Shown here piece after piece: positions 11,691-20,746 of a stretch of 64,000 bases of DNA. Both the position numbers and the translations under genes were made by a program. Origin of the DNA: a phage; sequence record PQ338057.1; one strand, given 5' to 3'. Each line of letters begins with the position of its first letter. Positions within the stretch are counted from its first letter, which is position 1. The notes under the pieces were generated by a model. That model did no database searches. It worked only from the letters and a program-made list of their open reading frames with translations, and was not told the DNA's origin.

Positions 11691-12036
11691 TCTCTGCTCC
11701 TGTTGATACGGAAAGGGAAACAGGCACACCGTTATTACGCCGCCCGGTCAGTCCCACCACCATTGAACCGTCAAAATTGCTGTTAATGGTGATGGAATCC
11801 AGCGTCAGCCGTGGCTCCCAGCGACTCAGCGCCACATACACTGCCGACATGACCTGCAGGCGTAACGCCGGATTTTGTGGCTGGTCTATCAGTGCCGACA
11901 GCAGGGAACCATATTCACGGCGAGCAATGCGGCTACCCTGCGGCGTCAGCAGAATGTCCCGCACCGACTGGCGCAGATGGTCAATATCAGTAATGACTTT
12001 GCCGCTGGTATTGTTCATCCCGCTATAAAGCGTCAT
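11677..12036 (-). CDS. baseplate wedge protein gpW
   Basis: 119-aa ORF between V and J; gpW-like. Confidence 0.75.
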   Translation of the reverse strand: MTLYSGMNNTSGKVITDIDHLRQSVRDILLTPQGSRIARREYGSLLSALIDQPQNPALRLQVMSAVYVALSRWEPRLTLDSITINSNFDGSMVVGLTGRRNNGVPVSLSVSTGAENGSD

Positions 12037-12611
12037 ACCGGGCCTCCGGTTGTATCGCCGCCTTTCAGGACGCCAGTATGCTGATGCGCATCAACCACGA
12101 TCCCGTTAGAACTCATCGCTCCGCCGCCCTGGGTAACGCCACCATTGATCACCACTTCGCTGTTAATGCGCGTGCGGTCAGCCTCCAGTACAAACTCACT
12201 GGTTTTCATGGTGATGTTATCAGCGGCCTCAATGACCATTGATTTGATGCCCCTGACATACCAGCGCCCGGTGGCGGGTTCGTATTCAAACCAGCCACCG
12301 TCAGGATGTTCTGTCACGCAGGCGTCCGCCGACGTCGACGGTGGTGCGAACTGATTCGAATAGACAGCGGGCAGCGCAAAGGCAGTCTCCAGATTGCCGC
12401 CCAGACTCAGCAGCACCACCTGCTCACCTTCCGATGGTCGCCACCATGTGCGGGCATTACCCGCGCGCAGCGTCAGCCAGCTGATCCAGTTGGTTTCAAG
12501 GTCGCCCGTTTTCACCCGACAAAGCCAGTTTTCCCGGTCCACTTCGGTGACTACACCTATGCGGATCAGATTGGTGATAAGGCGCATGATTTCGGTTAGT
12601 TGTGCGTTCAT
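12033..12611 (-). CDS. baseplate spike/assembly protein gpV (start at MNAQLTEIM)
   Basis: Position and similarity to P2 gpV; the N-terminal extension in the track ORF is likely spurious. Confidence 0.75.
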   Translation of the reverse strand: MNAQLTEIMRLITNLIRIGVVTEVDRENWLCRVKTGDLETNWISWLTLRAGNARTWWRPSEGEQVVLLSLGGNLETAFALPAVYSNQFAPPSTSADACVTEHPDGGWFEYEPATGRWYVRGIKSMVIEAADNITMKTSEFVLEADRTRINSEVVINGGVTQGGGAMSSNGIVVDAHQHTGVLKGGDTTGGPV

Positions 12612-12657
12612 AGATATATGATGACAGCTGAAAACTTGTTTATAACTTCTTGCAAAT

Positions 12658-12675
12658 TGTGGTATCGATGGTACA
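12658..12675. promoter_or_regulatory. TGT-N12-ACA dyad (Ogr/Delta-type late promoter element) upstream of V and of the divergent cargo ORF
   Basis: tgt ggtatcgatggt aca; P2-type late promoters carry this dyad (recall). Confidence 0.45.
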
Positions 12676-12714
12676 AATTGATAAAAGGATAAAAAACAAC
12701 CAATAGGTGGATAA

Positions 12715-13521
12715 ATGAGTGTTATGAATCCAATAAGTTCTAATATATTTAATGCTGAATTTTTAAACACCCCGGCAGCGGCACTTGCCGCATGGATTTC
12801 CATTATTGGAGCTGTTATAACTTTGGTGACGATAGTTATAAGAGCACTATTCAAATATAGAAAATCTCATGATGTAATTTTGAAAAAATCAGGAATACCT
12901 GCGTTTATATTAAATTTTTTTCTTATACGAATATCATTAAAAAGGCTGCCTACTATCACATGGGCTGAAAAATCAATCACGGTTCTCTTTTCACTTCTTT
13001 TTTTGTGTGCAATTTATATTTTTGGTCCAGTTTTCATCCAAGCCATTAGAACCCCACCAAATAGCACATTGCTTTATTGGATAAAGTCCGGTGAATCATT
13101 TTATATGTCAAAAAAACTGGCGACTGCAGCTACAATATTAACCACTCCTGATTGGGAAATATCAAAAGATGATTGCGAAGAGTCATCCTCTGCCAGTACA
13201 GAGAAGTACAAATCATTAACTATCGAACATAAAGAAATTCTTTGTAAACTACTAACCACTGATGAAGGGAATACTTACATTGATGAAGAAGTCAAGAATT
13301 TCGTTAAAGACAAATTCTTTATCTATTCCTTTGCCCCAACAACCATATTTATTCTATTATGGATTTCTTTGGGTTTTATACTGACCATTCACTATTCTAA
13401 AAAAGTTAGGAAATATATTCTGACTGAACAAAAAAATGCAATTCATTGGGCATATGGTGAATTCAAGACAGAAGGAATCTATTCAATATATCACGAGTTA
13501 GAACGTAAGACTCACCATTAA
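12715..13521 (+). CDS. AT-rich multi-pass membrane protein of unknown function (cargo gene between S and V)
   Basis: 268-aa ORF with GGTGG RBS; about four hydrophobic helices; markedly lower GC than flanking tail genes; opposite strand to the late operon. Confidence 0.7.
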   Translation: MSVMNPISSNIFNAEFLNTPAAALAAWISIIGAVITLVTIVIRALFKYRKSHDVILKKSGIPAFILNFFLIRISLKRLPTITWAEKSITVLFSLLFLCAIYIFGPVFIQAIRTPPNSTLLYWIKSGESFYMSKKLATAATILTTPDWEISKDDCEESSSASTEKYKSLTIEHKEILCKLLTTDEGNTYIDEEVKNFVKDKFFIYSFAPTTIFILLWISLGFILTIHYSKKVRKYILTEQKNAIHWAYGEFKTEGIYSIYHELERKTHH

Positions 13522-13909
13522 GACCCAACAAACGACGCTCTGCGTAACGCACTTCCGGTCCTTTGCGGCTGACGCGATCGCGCAGGCCATAATGGTGAAC
13601 GCGGGCAATGCGCTGCACCTTACTTTCAAACTGTACGCTGGCAGAGTCGGCGCTGGCGGCGGTTTTCAGGTATTTGGTGGTGCGCAGCTTTGCAAACATC
13701 TGACGTTTGATGCGGCCTTTTTTACTGCGCGCCGTGACCTTGCGCGGTTCATAACTGCTGCCATCTGGATTGCGCTGCATCCTGATATTCTGCTGCTGTG
13801 TCCGGCGCAGTTCCTGCGCCAGCTGGCGCATCATGCGGCTTCTTGCGACTGGTTCCAGATTCGCCAGTAAGGCACTAAGCCAGTCGTCCACCTTCTGCAG
13901 TTCAGCCAC
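13463..13909 (-). CDS. tail completion protein gpS
   Basis: 148-aa ORF; gene order R-S; P2 gpS-like. Confidence 0.7.
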   Translation of the reverse strand: MAELQKVDDWLSALLANLEPVARSRMMRQLAQELRRTQQQNIRMQRNPDGSSYEPRKVTARSKKGRIKRQMFAKLRTTKYLKTAASADSASVQFESKVQRIARVHHYGLRDRVSRKGPEVRYAERRLLGLNGESYVLTRDILNRFLLS

Positions 13910-14586: not shown

Positions 14587-14857
14587 GTTTCAGTTCCTCG
14601 ATCCGGTGTTGTCGTTGTCTCAGCAGTGCACTGGTCTGTTCTGCTTCGGCATAGAGCCGCGCCTGCTCCCGGTTATTGGTTTCAGTCAGAATGGACAGGC
14701 TGATAAGCTGGCTGTTTTTCTTCGTCAGTTCCTGCGCTTTACTTTTCAGCGCCGCGCGCTGCGTTTCGATGGTGTGGCTGGCGCTGTTAAGCCGCCACGA
14801 CTGCCAGCCCAGCGCAACGAGTGCCAGCGCCACCACTACTGCCAGCGCACGCGTCAT
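14429..14857 (-). CDS. lysB: LysB (Rz-like inner-membrane spanin)
   Basis: N-terminal TM segment then coiled-coil-like region; 142 aa; P2 LysB-like. Confidence 0.7.
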   Translation of the reverse strand: MTRALAVVVALALVALGWQSWRLNSASHTIETQRAALKSKAQELTKKNSQLISLSILTETNNREQARLYAEAEQTSALLRQRQHRIEELKRENEDLRRWADTPLPADIIRLRERPALTGGTAYRQWLSASDAVSAGSGNAAH

Positions 14858-14993
14858 AGTCCAGCTCCTTTAAGGCACCAGGCCATCTCCCGCGCACGGC
14901 GGTTATCCAGCCCCTGATTAAACACACCTTTTACATAAACCCAGCGCGGCAACTGTCGGCACGCATCTGCCCAGCGCCGCTGATTGAGCAATT

Positions 14994-15746
14994 TCACCAG
15001 TGTGGAACTACAGGCATTGCCCGTTGCTGCTTCTGCAGAGCAGACTCCAGTTCAGACAGGCGTTCTTCCTGCTCAGACAGAGATTTTTCGGTTCGCGCGC
15101 TCAGGTTTTGCTGCTCAGTGGCGACCAGCTCCACGGCCTTATGCACATCAGAGAACCGGGCGTCATCGGACTGCTCTTTTTTGGTGAACAGCGCCGTGAC
15201 GCGGGAAAACAGGGACGGTTTGTCGTCCTGGACTTCCTCCAGTTCGATCACCGTTTCCTCTGCAGCGGTAAAGAGATTGGCAGGATTCTGCTTGCGGTTT
15301 GCCAGCGGGTTATGGGCTGCACTGGCGCTGAATGTCAGCATTTCAGTGCCCAGACTGGCAGGGTCATCAGTGGCAGCCAGGCCGACCAGGTAGGCTTTGC
15401 CCGTATCAGCGAACTTCGGGCTGACTTCCATAGAGGTGAATAATTTCTGGCCTTTTTTCACCAGTTCCACCAGGGACTCCGTTGGCTCAACGTCGGCATA
15501 CAGCGCCATCTTGCCTGCCAGCGGACCTTCCGTGATTTCCTCAGCAAACAGCGCCGTCACCTTGCCGTAGCGGTTAAAGGTGCTGTCCGGCAGATAAGAC
15601 TTGATGTGCTCAAGGTTAATCAGCGCGGTATACACCGCCGGGTTGTAGCTGGCTGCCATCTGTTCCAGCCATTCACGCTGGATTTCGCGTCCGTCGGTGG
15701 TGGCACCTTCCACCCCGATGCGAAAACGCTTTGCTTTCACTGTCAT
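14994..15746 (-). CDS. capsid scaffold protein gpO, probably 3'-truncated at a deletion junction
   Basis: N-terminal region resembles P2 gpO (FRIGVEG...INLEH...YLVGLAATDDPASLGTE); 250 aa against ~284 in P2 (recall); followed directly by lysB instead of N, M, L. Confidence 0.7.
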   Translation of the reverse strand: MTVKAKRFRIGVEGATTDGREIQREWLEQMAASYNPAVYTALINLEHIKSYLPDSTFNRYGKVTALFAEEITEGPLAGKMALYADVEPTESLVELVKKGQKLFTSMEVSPKFADTGKAYLVGLAATDDPASLGTEMLTFSASAAHNPLANRKQNPANLFTAAEETVIELEEVQDDKPSLFSRVTALFTKKEQSDDARFSDVHKAVELVATEQQNLSARTEKSLSEQEERLSELESALQKQQRAMPVVPHW

Positions 15747-18688: not shown

Positions 18689-18708
18689 CGAAGACCATTA
18701 GGTCTTCG
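18689..18708. terminator. hairpin cgaagacc-atta-ggtcttcg between convergent Q and the retron RT
   Basis: Perfect 8-bp inverted repeat overlapping the RT stop codon. Confidence 0.4.
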
Positions 18709-19660
18709 CTTTATTTAAAGGGTTCTTTCCATATTTTTTTTCTAATTTGCTAATATAAGTTATTAATCTCCTATGGCTTTTTGAATCCACACTTAAAATA
18801 AATGACAACCATCCCCTAACGTGTTCTATCTCAGAAGACTTACCGCAAAATATATGATGTATCTTTGCTCTAATTTCTTTATATTTTTCTCTACCTATCC
18901 CAACTTTCTCTTGTGAAATAACTAAACCTGTAACTTTCCTCTGACTACGAGGCCCACTAATACAAGTTTTTTTTGAGTTAATAACCAATCCTTCACTTGG
19001 GATTATAGAAAATAAAAAATCACGTGCTTTAACAACCTTTTTCATAGACTGTGCAGATAAGGTGAGATCATCGGCATATCTCGTATATATCAAGCCCCGA
19101 CTACCTGCATAACCCTGAATACGATAATCAAGTTTAGAACATATTAGATTAGCTAATTTAGGTGATGATGGAGCACCTTGTGGTAGCAGATTTTTATAAC
19201 AACATATTTTTGTCAAAACTGAAGATATTAGTCGATTATAACCAAGAGAATGGAACACTCCAAAAACTTTGTTAGCAGTTAAACTTGGGAAAAAATCCTC
19301 CAAATCAATATTCAGTATAAAGTTTGCCCCAATATGCGGGGTAGCATTATTCAAAATAGATTGGTGCTTTTCAAATCCAATAGAAAAAGGAGATGACGAC
19401 AGTTTATCTAAAATGTTACGTAGAACCCATCCTTGTAAGGCTTTAAGTTCTCGAGAAGGTTGGTAAATGGTTCTCATTCTCTTCTCTGGGCCTTTCTTTT
19501 CTACAGTGTAGATCCTATAGCGAAAATCAGCTGTATAGATTAACAACCGAAGTGTTTCAACAGATATGCGAGTCGCCTTAGACATGTCATGCAAATTGTT
19601 CATGACAGGTAGGCCGAGATTTCTCAATCTAAAAGTGTTCAAATATTCAGCGGATTTCAT
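18698..19660 (-). CDS. ret: retron reverse transcriptase (Retron-Eco1 / Ec86 RT), 320 aa
   Basis: YADD active-site motif (RYADDLTLS); sequence MKSAEYLNTFRLRNLGLPVMNNLHDMSKATRISVETLRLL recalled as the Ec86 RT; immediately downstream of msr-msd. Confidence 0.95.
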   Translation of the reverse strand: MKSAEYLNTFRLRNLGLPVMNNLHDMSKATRISVETLRLLIYTADFRYRIYTVEKKGPEKRMRTIYQPSRELKALQGWVLRNILDKLSSSPFSIGFEKHQSILNNATPHIGANFILNIDLEDFFPSLTANKVFGVFHSLGYNRLISSVLTKICCYKNLLPQGAPSSPKLANLICSKLDYRIQGYAGSRGLIYTRYADDLTLSAQSMKKVVKARDFLFSIIPSEGLVINSKKTCISGPRSQRKVTGLVISQEKVGIGREKYKEIRAKIHHIFCGKSSEIEHVRGWLSFILSVDSKSHRRLITYISKLEKKYGKNPLNKAKT

Positions 19661-19666
19661 GAAAGT

Positions 19667-19841
19667 TGCGCACCCTTACGTCAGAAAAAACGGGTTTCCT
19701 GGTTGGCTCGGAGAGCATCAGGCGATGCTCTCCGTTCCAACAAGGAAAACAGACAGTAACTCAGATTCAATGCAGGATGCCGAAACAACATCCAGAGGTT
19801 GACCTTAATGATAAACCTCTCGCTAAGGGTGCGCATACGGA
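19667..19841 (-). ncRNA. msr-msd: retron msr-msd non-coding RNA (Ec86): msr about 19749-19841, msd about 19681-19766, a1/a2 inverted repeats at 19824-19835 and 19667-19678
   Basis: Minus strand reads ATGCGCACCCTTAGCGAGAGGTTTATCATTAAGGTCAACC...; plus strand 19681-19766 reads TCAGAAAAAACGGGTTTCCTGGTTGGCTCGGAGAGCATCAGGCGATGCTCTCC..., the msDNA-Ec86 sequence as recalled. Confidence 0.9.
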
Positions 19842-20746
19842 ATCTTATCATAGTTAAATGTTGATTTTCTACGGTTTTCAAAATTCATAATCTCAAGCCG
19901 CAATCGGTCAAGTGTCTTTCTATCAAAGACGCTCCTAACATAGCTAGCCCCCAAAGCAGTGACCTGATAACCATCAGTCATTTGAAGTATTTTTCGTTCA
20001 TTTATTAGACGAGAAACAACGGATCTAACAATAATTTTAGATAAAACATCATCTTGCTTTATCGCTTTAAAAGCTAGTTCACACAGTGTGCGGTAGTTGA
20101 CACTATCCAGTAAATAGATACAAGGCAATAGAAACCGCTCTGCGTATAATATATTTCCAATATCTTTTGATACTTTATTTTCTTTCCTAACCTTCTTAAT
20201 AGATGCCATTAATTTTTTATATAATCGTAATTTTCTGGCAACATCAATAGATGAATCACACATTTCTTTTAGTTCATTTGAACTACAACGCAAAACAGAT
20301 TTTGAATTAAACTTACGCAACAGGCGAACAGGACCATAGTTAATAAAGCTACGTTTTGATTTAAATTTTGCATCTTGAATGCAAATCAACTTTCTCCTTA
20401 AGTTTTCATTATTAGAGAACGCACCAAGCTCTGTGAAAGACCCCGGACTTTCAGGAAATAAAATTATTACATCGACAGCTTCAGCCAGAATATTTTCTAA
20501 ACTTAAAAGGCTATGCTGCCCTTGACCAGCCAAAAGATCATCAAATAGATCTTCTGGATAAAATATATCAACATCACTGAACTTTGCTAAAAATTGTGAT
20601 AATTGATGACGCCAAGATTGATGATTAGCAACGTCACCACCACATAGAAAAATGGTTATTTTAATATTAGCTCCTCGATAGAAGCCTTTCTTTGTGAGAT
20701 GTCCTATAAGCTGTTGTTGCTGCTCATCGGTAAATTTTTTATTCAT
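19823..20746 (-). CDS. retron effector, nucleoside 2-deoxyribosyltransferase-like (NDT-like) protein, 307 aa
   Basis: Upstream of msr-msd on the same strand, stop codon inside the msr a1 region; Rossmann-like motifs (IFLCGGD, ILFPESPGSFTELG); AT-rich; NDT assignment from recall of Retron-Eco1, not verified. Confidence 0.75.
   Translation of the reverse strand: MNKKFTDEQQQQLIGHLTKKGFYRGANIKITIFLCGGDVANHQSWRHQLSQFLAKFSDVDIFYPEDLFDDLLAGQGQHSLLSLENILAEAVDVIILFPESPGSFTELGAFSNNENLRRKLICIQDAKFKSKRSFINYGPVRLLRKFNSKSVLRCSSNELKEMCDSSIDVARKLRLYKKLMASIKKVRKENKVSKDIGNILYAERFLLPCIYLLDSVNYRTLCELAFKAIKQDDVLSKIIVRSVVSRLINERKILQMTDGYQVTALGASYVRSVFDRKTLDRLRLEIMNFENRRKSTFNYDKIPYAHP

Follow-up and report, generated by a model that had tools for sequence, protein, structure and literature searches.

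What keeps a single AT-rich membrane-protein gene intact inside a prophage that has lost capsid and tail genes? The question is raised by a stretch of 64,000 nucleotides (nt) from sequence record PQ338057.1 (hereafter the window, numbered from its first letter). Between the tail genes V and S lies an open reading frame (ORF) of 268 codons (12715..13521, + strand), which starts with ATG and encodes a protein of 268 amino acids (aa). As a single-gene 'moron' it occupies the slot between S and V (orf30) in P2/186-like prophages, and we refer to it as the cargo gene. Its annotation as a DUF6216 gene and the variability of the slot were already known. To these we add the survival of the gene where its prophage has decayed, the overlap of its putative promoter with a late-activator site, a possible link to P2 Orf30, and a family assignment that a preliminary description of this DNA, made from its letters, had not reached. 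With a probability of about 0.4, we favour the reading that the cargo protein excludes superinfecting phages at the envelope, at the step of genome entry.

A genuine gene under purifying selection

The preliminary description had proposed a 268-aa ORF with its own ribosome-binding site, lying between S and V against the direction of the late genes, more AT-rich than its surroundings and overlapping the 3' end of S by about 58 bp. Each of these points is borne out (Table 1). The Shine-Dalgarno sequence AGGTGG stands just upstream of the ATG, and most homologues keep GGAGG or GGTGG at this place, with a weaker form in some. Both neighbours, gpV and gpS, are encoded on the minus strand. GC content is 0.33 in the cargo ORF (0.27 at third codon positions) versus 0.55-0.59 in both flanks, and the AT-rich island extends from ~12612 to 13521. 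The tail-to-tail overlap with S counts 59 bp and is also found in homologous prophages; the last 19 cargo codons are antisense to the final gpS codons. Within the AT-rich module lie the codons for the last ~19 aa of gpS, which vary with the cargo type (window and loci L002-L005). No intrinsic terminator was predicted after S or elsewhere at the locus on either strand, and no direct or inverted repeats that would be a sign of transposition were found to flank the module.

The window region is 100% identical to Escherichia coli B (REL606, BL21 and derivatives), whose defective P2/186-like prophage is inserted between ybjL and rcdA. Among 5426 complete E. coli genomes, 111 contain the cargo gene, many of them B derivatives, versus 1041 E. 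coli genomes with a window-type gene V. The E. coli B prophage is defective, with capsid and tail genes deleted, and the ORF might accordingly be a non-functional frame in decay. That explanation is effectively refuted. At the composition of the cargo gene, stop codons would arise at random at a rate of ~7.5%, giving P ~1e-9 for an open frame of 268 codons at 33% GC. Full-length homologues occur across genera, and the ratio of nonsynonymous to synonymous substitution rates (dN/dS) is 0.11-0.27 at dS 0.25-0.75 (unsaturated pairs, lone copies included). The promoter is conserved as well, and all cargo copies have a GC content of 0.32-0.39. We conclude that the cargo ORF is a real gene, maintained by purifying selection.

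Persistence after prophage decay

The cargo gene outlives its prophage in several Enterobacterales, where it is intact in heavily decayed remnants or is left alone. In one prophage (L036), S, R and the lysis genes have been lost and the cargo gene is kept. A Citrobacter youngae remnant consists of V, S and R fragments around an intact cargo copy, and a Klebsiella aerogenes remnant retains 23 V codons, the cargo gene, S-like sequence and an R fragment, with an adjoining insertion sequence (IS). In Scandinavium, all structural genes have been lost from a remnant at ybjL-rcdA (L009 4836-9849), which holds a gene for a GIY-YIG protein, the DUF6216 gene, a CI-type repressor gene and a gene for an AAA_15/AAA_21 ATPase (662 aa). 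Three lineages have only the cargo gene left at ybjL-rcdA. They are represented by a Citrobacter sedlakii-like genome, an uncultured member of Enterobacteriaceae and the genome encoding P0034, a protein 35% identical to that of the window. Traces of the V start-codon region can still be aligned 5' of the lone copies, which indicates that these descend from a prophage by decay and were not chromosomal genes captured by one.

The S-V slot and its alternative cargos

The preliminary description had placed the gene where P2 carries orf30 and had counted this place as a third variable slot of P2-like phages. Both statements agree with what we found: P2 Orf30 occupies the corresponding position on the same relative strand, and the orf30 site is one of three variable regions described for P2-like phages (PMC3091744; also PMC6823313). 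The S-V slot is a genuine site of presence/absence and cargo exchange among closely related phages. It is empty in phage 500465-1, which has a 68-bp S-V spacer, and holds a gene for a 176-aa protein in Cartapus, a 283-aa protein in RE2010 and the 261-aa Orf30 in P2, whose record annotates a terminator after S and an activator site before V. Among P2-type phages, 20 records contain Orf30 and most others have an empty slot. In SEN8, a Salmonella phage, the slot encodes a protein with an FRG domain and a match to the PADLOC candidate defence family PDC-S15 (E 3e-31; L004 1097-2032). This match suggests, independently of DUF6216, that the slot can hold defence-type cargo. The cargo genes of Cartapus, SEN8, RE2010, P2 and the window are all opposite to the late-gene strand.

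Homology to the empty site ends just past the V start codon on one side and ~19 codons before the S stop on the other, so the module supplies the V promoter region and the C-terminal tail of gpS in versions of its own. The gene order V-cargo-S recurs in IMG/VR prophages (31-38 kb) and in Buttiauxella, where V, DUF6216, S, R, lysis genes and capsid genes follow one another in late regions that appear intact. Alleles of ~50% identity (L035, L036, L014) occupy the corresponding slot and strand, as does a protein only 21% identical (P0059, L053), whose gene lies in an intact prophage and again overlaps S. Identity among DUF6216 alleles across the slot thus spans 21-100%, with V and S 80-90% identical (measured for L014, L035 and L036).

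The cargo gene shares with the old/tin, Z/fun and neaT morons of P2-like phages its AT-richness, its non-essential nature, its variable presence and its site at an operon boundary, often on the opposite strand (PMC3091744, PMC3573123, PMC9122126). It differs in its place, the S-V slot as opposed to the cos-proximal TO region or the Z region, and the proteins are unrelated. ORF16 of phage R18C was considered as a related slot cargo and rejected, being a soluble, Cys/His-rich protein of 246 aa that is unrelated and encoded on the late strand. This gene (L050 581-1321, MN016939) runs in the direction of the late genes, in contrast to the other cargos seen. The paper on R18C gives P2 ORF30 as '261-bp-long'; in the P2 record the gene is 786 bp and the protein 261 aa.

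Assignment to DUF6216

The preliminary description could not assign the protein to any family, and here it has to be corrected. The protein matches Pfam DUF6216 (PF19723) with 44.5 bits (E 1.5e-11), above the gathering threshold of 27.3, and RefSeq already names it 'DUF6216 family protein' (WP_000115390.1). The match is limited to aa 72-237, corresponding to profile positions 114-265 of 270. PF19723 is carried by 31 of 32 close homologue clusters (clustered at 90% identity), which come from Escherichia, Salmonella, Klebsiella, Citrobacter and Serratia. The family is rare, with 50 clusters (50% identity) at E up to 1e-3 in an exhaustive HMMER search of 1.84 billion representatives, and it is a family of unknown function with no characterised member. 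That HMMER search reaches P0081, a canonical member that scores 271 bits on PF19723 over its full length, as against 44.5 bits over part of the cargo protein. All recovered members share a length of ~234-296 aa, a layout of three transmembrane segments (TM) and a loop with the pattern W...C...C. Canonical members are chromosomal, whereas the cargo subfamily resides in the S-V slot of P2-like prophages. By sequence, the cargo subfamily is peripheral within DUF6216.

Other resources gave no further lead. PHROGs, PADLOC and NCBIfam returned no significant match for the cargo protein, the PADLOC-DB 2.0 system models no family at E up to 10, and a sequence-profile search of the PDB with the cargo family only noise. 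No homology was found to a characterised superinfection-exclusion protein, and no clear homology to a housekeeping membrane protein; a match of the latter kind is what the preliminary description had named as telling against its proposal. Foldseek of the cargo model against BFVD retrieved nothing, and no similar solved or viral predicted structure was seen; in a control, the Orf30 model did not retrieve Orf30 either, which leaves the BFVD negative silent on the relationship to Orf30. Papers searched by accession number gave no match.

Two candidates were rejected. Identity as a holin was suggested by a resemblance of TM1 that stays below threshold (PF16080, 14.5 bits versus a threshold of 28.8; phrog_4237, E 0.26), and the lysis genes of the prophage lie elsewhere, on the other strand than the cargo gene. 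The second, P0079 (1199 aa), at first promised insight into the loop domain. It proved to be a SpaA/prealbumin repeat protein with six matches through a weak W..C motif, which we judge spurious. The surface protein P0079 contains a recurring GW.LSDL.C...C motif, that is, a recurrent W...C...C pattern.

Predicted architecture and conserved core

About four hydrophobic helices and a soluble loop of ~90 aa had been described for the protein. The loop stands, as a polar stretch of 90 aa between TM2 and TM3; of the helices, hydropathy supports three strong transmembrane segments, the fourth being a weaker amphipathic segment (Table 1). The protein is predicted to be a three-pass inner-membrane protein, with its N-terminus outside, aa 45-87 inside, aa 111-200 in the periplasm and the tail inside. 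This topology is based on the distribution of lysine and arginine residues, with none in the first 19 aa, nine in aa 45-87 and eight in aa 227-268. The AlphaFold2 model has a mean predicted local distance difference test (pLDDT) of 75, rising to ~85-94 over aa 83-150 and 170-230, and its elements run in the order TM2, four short strands, one short helix that carries C154, a further helix that carries C177 and a long helix that contains TM3.

In an alignment of 22 family sequences (17-57% identity to the query), W147, C154 and C177 are the only invariant residues besides Met1, and F129 comes close to invariance; W147, C154, C177 and F129 all belong to the TM2-TM3 loop. Because the conserved cysteine pair falls in the predicted periplasmic domain, C154 and C177 probably form a disulfide. 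Within the subfamily, the most constrained part is the predicted cytoplasmic loop (regional dN/dS 0.05-0.21), with the family consensus KKAG...F.I.I.LK..P. No polar residue is invariant family-wide, which makes an enzymatic function unlikely, and a role in binding, blocking or gating appears likelier.

A putative promoter that overlaps the late-activator site

V and the cargo ATG are 103 bp apart, and this interval is conserved far better than the coding sequence. L035, whose protein is 50% identical, shows 98% identity over the core of the interval (12646-12700), although synonymous sites are saturated there (dS 1.25). The interval contains a putative sigma-70 promoter with an extended -10 element, reading towards the cargo gene from a predicted start near 12684, and a TGT-N12-ACA dyad of the Ogr/Delta late-activator type that overlaps the spacer and the -10 of this promoter (Table 1). 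The dyad is kept in all five aligned S-V variants. Measured from the first base of V, the centre of the dyad is 55.5 nt away. P2 has identical spacing, and its record marks both the activator site and a start of V transcription, which falls on the V start codon. With the geometry of P2, the dyad would lie at about -17 of the cargo promoter. The lone chromosomal cargo genes keep the -35 and the -10, and the TGT half-site of their dyad has decayed to TAT.

These elements suggest how the gene may be controlled. In the lysogen, the cargo gene would be transcribed from its own conserved promoter; during lytic growth, binding of the late activator would turn V on and the cargo gene off. Since no terminator is predicted after S, late read-through from the O operon could in addition send antisense transcription through the cargo gene. 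If true, the overlap of promoter and activator site amounts to a compact switch, on in lysogeny and off in lysis. The AT-rich island is likely also a target of H-NS. A 2026 preprint on H-NS silencing of antiviral immunity through 3D chromatin compaction (bioRxiv 10.64898/2026.09.05.749240), which makes heavy use of BL21, contains the words 'DUF6216 gene' once, BL21 29 times, prophage 25 times, retron seven times and P2-like four times, and may bear on how the cargo gene is expressed or what it does.

Relation to P2 Orf30

P2 Orf30 (NP_046770.1) resembles the cargo protein in more than its place. Its gene, nonessential in P2, lies like the cargo gene in the S-V slot on the same relative strand, with a similar GC content (0.34) and a product of similar size (261 aa). 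Orf30 likewise has three TM (~aa 4-31, 106-132 and 219-241) and an 86-aa loop with two cysteines. In an AlphaFold2 model of its family (pLDDT 72), the elements follow the order of the cargo model: TM2, four strands, a short helix with the first cysteine, a helix with the second and the long TM3 helix. Orf30 differs in having a longer cytoplasmic region between TM1 and TM2, and in P2 the S and Orf30 genes do not overlap and have an annotated terminator between them, whereas the cargo gene overlaps S.

Searches with tblastn and hmmsearch between the cargo family and Orf30 found no significant similarity, and a Pfam scan of Orf30 gave no match. Alignment of Orf30 with DUF6216 by hhalign gave a probability of 65.8% (E 5.7e-5, score 39.3) over only 51 columns, comprising the region from cysteine to cysteine and the juxtamembrane helix. 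Column shuffles of the Orf30 alignment scored 14.6 on average (standard deviation 2.5, maximum 22.5), and none of 64 reached 39.3, a score ~10 standard deviations above their mean; the reversed Orf30 alignment scored 15.2. Three of four separate DUF6216 sub-alignments recovered this register against Orf30, at low hhalign probabilities of 4-19%. From the profile alignment and the models we consider it rather likely that P2 Orf30 and the DUF6216 cargo are remote homologues, and we put the pair forward as a candidate relationship. A much bolder extension, which we regard as doubtful, would unite DUF6216 and Orf30 in one old, fast-diverging superfamily that habitually resides in the S-V slot of Peduoviridae. 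It would form a class of disulfide-stabilised, periplasm-facing exclusion proteins that had gone unrecognised, on in the lysogen, switched off by the late activator and repeatedly domesticated by Enterobacterales at ybjL-rcdA as all that survives of a decayed prophage.

What the cargo may do for its host

The cargo probably acts at the envelope, in the exclusion of phages or in some other capacity there. Under the reading that we favour, the cargo protein would face the periplasm from the inner membrane and block the genome entry of superinfecting phages, in the manner of T4 Imm or P22 SieA, and such exclusion would benefit the lysogen. Exclusion or abortive infection, the candidate roles named in the preliminary description, fits the circumstantial evidence because the gene is retained after decay and stands alone without a partner gene, and because its conserved core is predicted to face the periplasm and one distant member lies in an island of restriction and toxin genes. 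This member, P0084 (L043 1-14256), is encoded in an integrase-bounded island together with an MmeI-type restriction-modification system, a DEAD helicase, T5orf172, an Mrr-type nuclease and a SymE toxin; another distant member adjoins PAAR and an immunity-like array. T4 Imm, P22 SieA and HK97 gp15 are inner-membrane superinfection-exclusion proteins. The cargo protein is, like them, a single-gene product of a phage or prophage, predicted to lie in the inner membrane, without an enzymatic signature, and its expression in the lysogen is likewise plausible. It differs from them in being larger, with a structured, cysteine-bearing periplasmic domain (predicted), and no relationship to them in sequence or fold was found.

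Several observations weigh against superinfection exclusion. A tblastn search of 50,697 phage records gave no match, and the gene is known so far from prophages only. Canonical and other distant DUF6216 members are found in ordinary chromosomal surroundings with no phage or defence genes, which indicates that the family is not intrinsically phage-linked. A strict consensus promoter scan called nothing upstream of the cargo gene, whose putative promoter departs from consensus, its -10 TACAAA lacking the final T. Expression in the lysogen is presumed, and H-NS may silence the gene there; topology and disulfide are predictions from sequence and model.

The family's chromosomal settings lend themselves to a second explanation, in which the protein is an envelope-fitness or lysogenic-conversion factor that has nothing to do with phages and serves stress tolerance, transport, surface properties or niche fitness. 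We regard this as possible though unlikely. It accords with the retention of the gene as a lone chromosomal gene, with the distant DUF6216 members beside metabolic or regulatory genes and with the lack of any defence-family match, and it has a precedent in neaT, an AT-rich moron on the opposite strand in the Z/fun slot of a P2-like prophage of CFT073 with a virulence phenotype (PMC3573123). A general fitness factor squares poorly with the great rarity of DUF6216 and with slot alleles that are 21-50% identical between flanks of 80-90%, a pattern more typical of conflict genes; other occupants of the slot, moreover, include the candidate defence gene of SEN8.

If phages are involved, the protein might act after their entry, as an abortive-infection effector that stays inactive in the inner membrane until a phage infects, when it oligomerises or opens and depolarises the cell like RexB. 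A multi-pass membrane protein of a prophage suits this role, transmembrane proteins being frequent suicide effectors in known systems (PMC9122126); the cytoplasmic loop is strongly conserved, and a toxic gene would be a fitting target for H-NS silencing. We nevertheless think it improbable, given that the gene has no partner or sensor gene, is always single between V and S and survives alone. Its two cytoplasmic parts comprise just 43 and 42 aa, with no recognisable sensor domain, the invariant residues are predicted to face the periplasm, and the holin-like matches are far below threshold. More improbable still is that the protein assists the cycle of the phage itself, for example in lysis timing, in the control of its own genome delivery or in a block to re-adsorption, and is not expressed in the lysogen. 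The location inside the late region, the regulatory region held in common with the V late promoter and the persistence of P2 Orf30, annotated as nonessential, all speak for such a role. The gene is, however, transcribed against both late operons, with the dyad at about -17 of its own promoter and not at -55; the slot is empty in many viable relatives, and the gene is kept after the loss of every structural gene.

Should the cargo alter phage sensitivity or envelope behaviour, there would be practical consequences for the widely used strains BL21 and REL606. The two classic P2 hotspots have already been mined for defence systems; the hotspot studies consulted (including PMC9122126) tested the cos-proximal and Z/fun sites, and the S-V slot lies outside their coverage. 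With one family in the slot across 21-100% identity, kept by hosts after the phage is lost, the locus offers a clear example of cargo domestication, and slot residency and retention give DUF6216 a testable hypothesis.

Features of the locus and the surrounding prophage

Table 1. Positions of the cargo gene, its protein segments, its regulatory elements and the slot anchors in the window
Feature	Position	Strand	Evidence
gpV (baseplate spike), left slot anchor	12033..12611	-	ORF, RefSeq annotation
Putative sigma-70 promoter: -35 TTGCAA at 12650-12655, 16-nt spacer	12650..12677	+	conservation; inferred
Extended -10 of the putative promoter: TGn and TACAAA	12669-12671 and 12672-12677	+	conservation; inferred
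TGT-N12-ACA dyad, Ogr/Delta-type late-activator site of the V-operon promoter	12658..12675	.	alignment; P2 spacing
Shine-Dalgarno AGGTGG, 4 nt 5' of the ATG	12705..12710	+	sequence
DUF6216-family membrane protein coding sequence	12715..13521	+	ORF; PF19723; RefSeq WP_000115390.1, ECB_RS04445; homologues; dN/dS
TM1, aa 20-44	12772..12846	+	hydropathy, charge; AlphaFold2 helix 20-58
Predicted cytoplasmic loop, aa 45-87, 9 K/R, amphipathic helix 61-76	12847..12975	+	hydropathy, charge
TM2, aa 88-110	12976..13044	+	hydropathy; AlphaFold2 helix 83-112, pLDDT ~90
Predicted periplasmic domain, aa 111-200, four short strands then helices	13045..13314	+	AlphaFold2, pLDDT 85-94
Codons of W147, C154 and C177	13153-13155, 13174-13176, 13243-13245	+	codon positions
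TM3, aa 201-226	13315..13392	+	hydropathy; within long AlphaFold2 helix 183-247
Predicted cytoplasmic C-terminal tail, aa 227-268, 8 K/R	13393..13518	+	charge
Cargo/gpS tail-to-tail overlap, 59 bp including both stop codons	13463..13521	.	ORFs
gpS (tail completion), right slot anchor	13463..13909	-	ORF, RefSeq annotation

The prophage around the locus is defective, with two large deletions. At 14854-15746, a 250-aa gpO-family scaffold gene abuts a gpK-like lysozyme fragment without its N-terminus, a junction which implies that the capsid gene N, the terminase gene M and the L, X and holin genes have been deleted; in intact relatives the distance between lysB and O is ~3.3 kb. At 6033-6982, ogr is followed by a gpD/VgrG-type C-terminal fragment fused to a recombinase (invertase) fragment, and the genes for tail sheath, tube, tape measure and U are missing, which makes this the second large deletion. 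The cos-proximal cargo slot (18698-20746) encodes a retron St85-family reverse transcriptase with its effector, which we take to be retron Ec86 of E. coli B.

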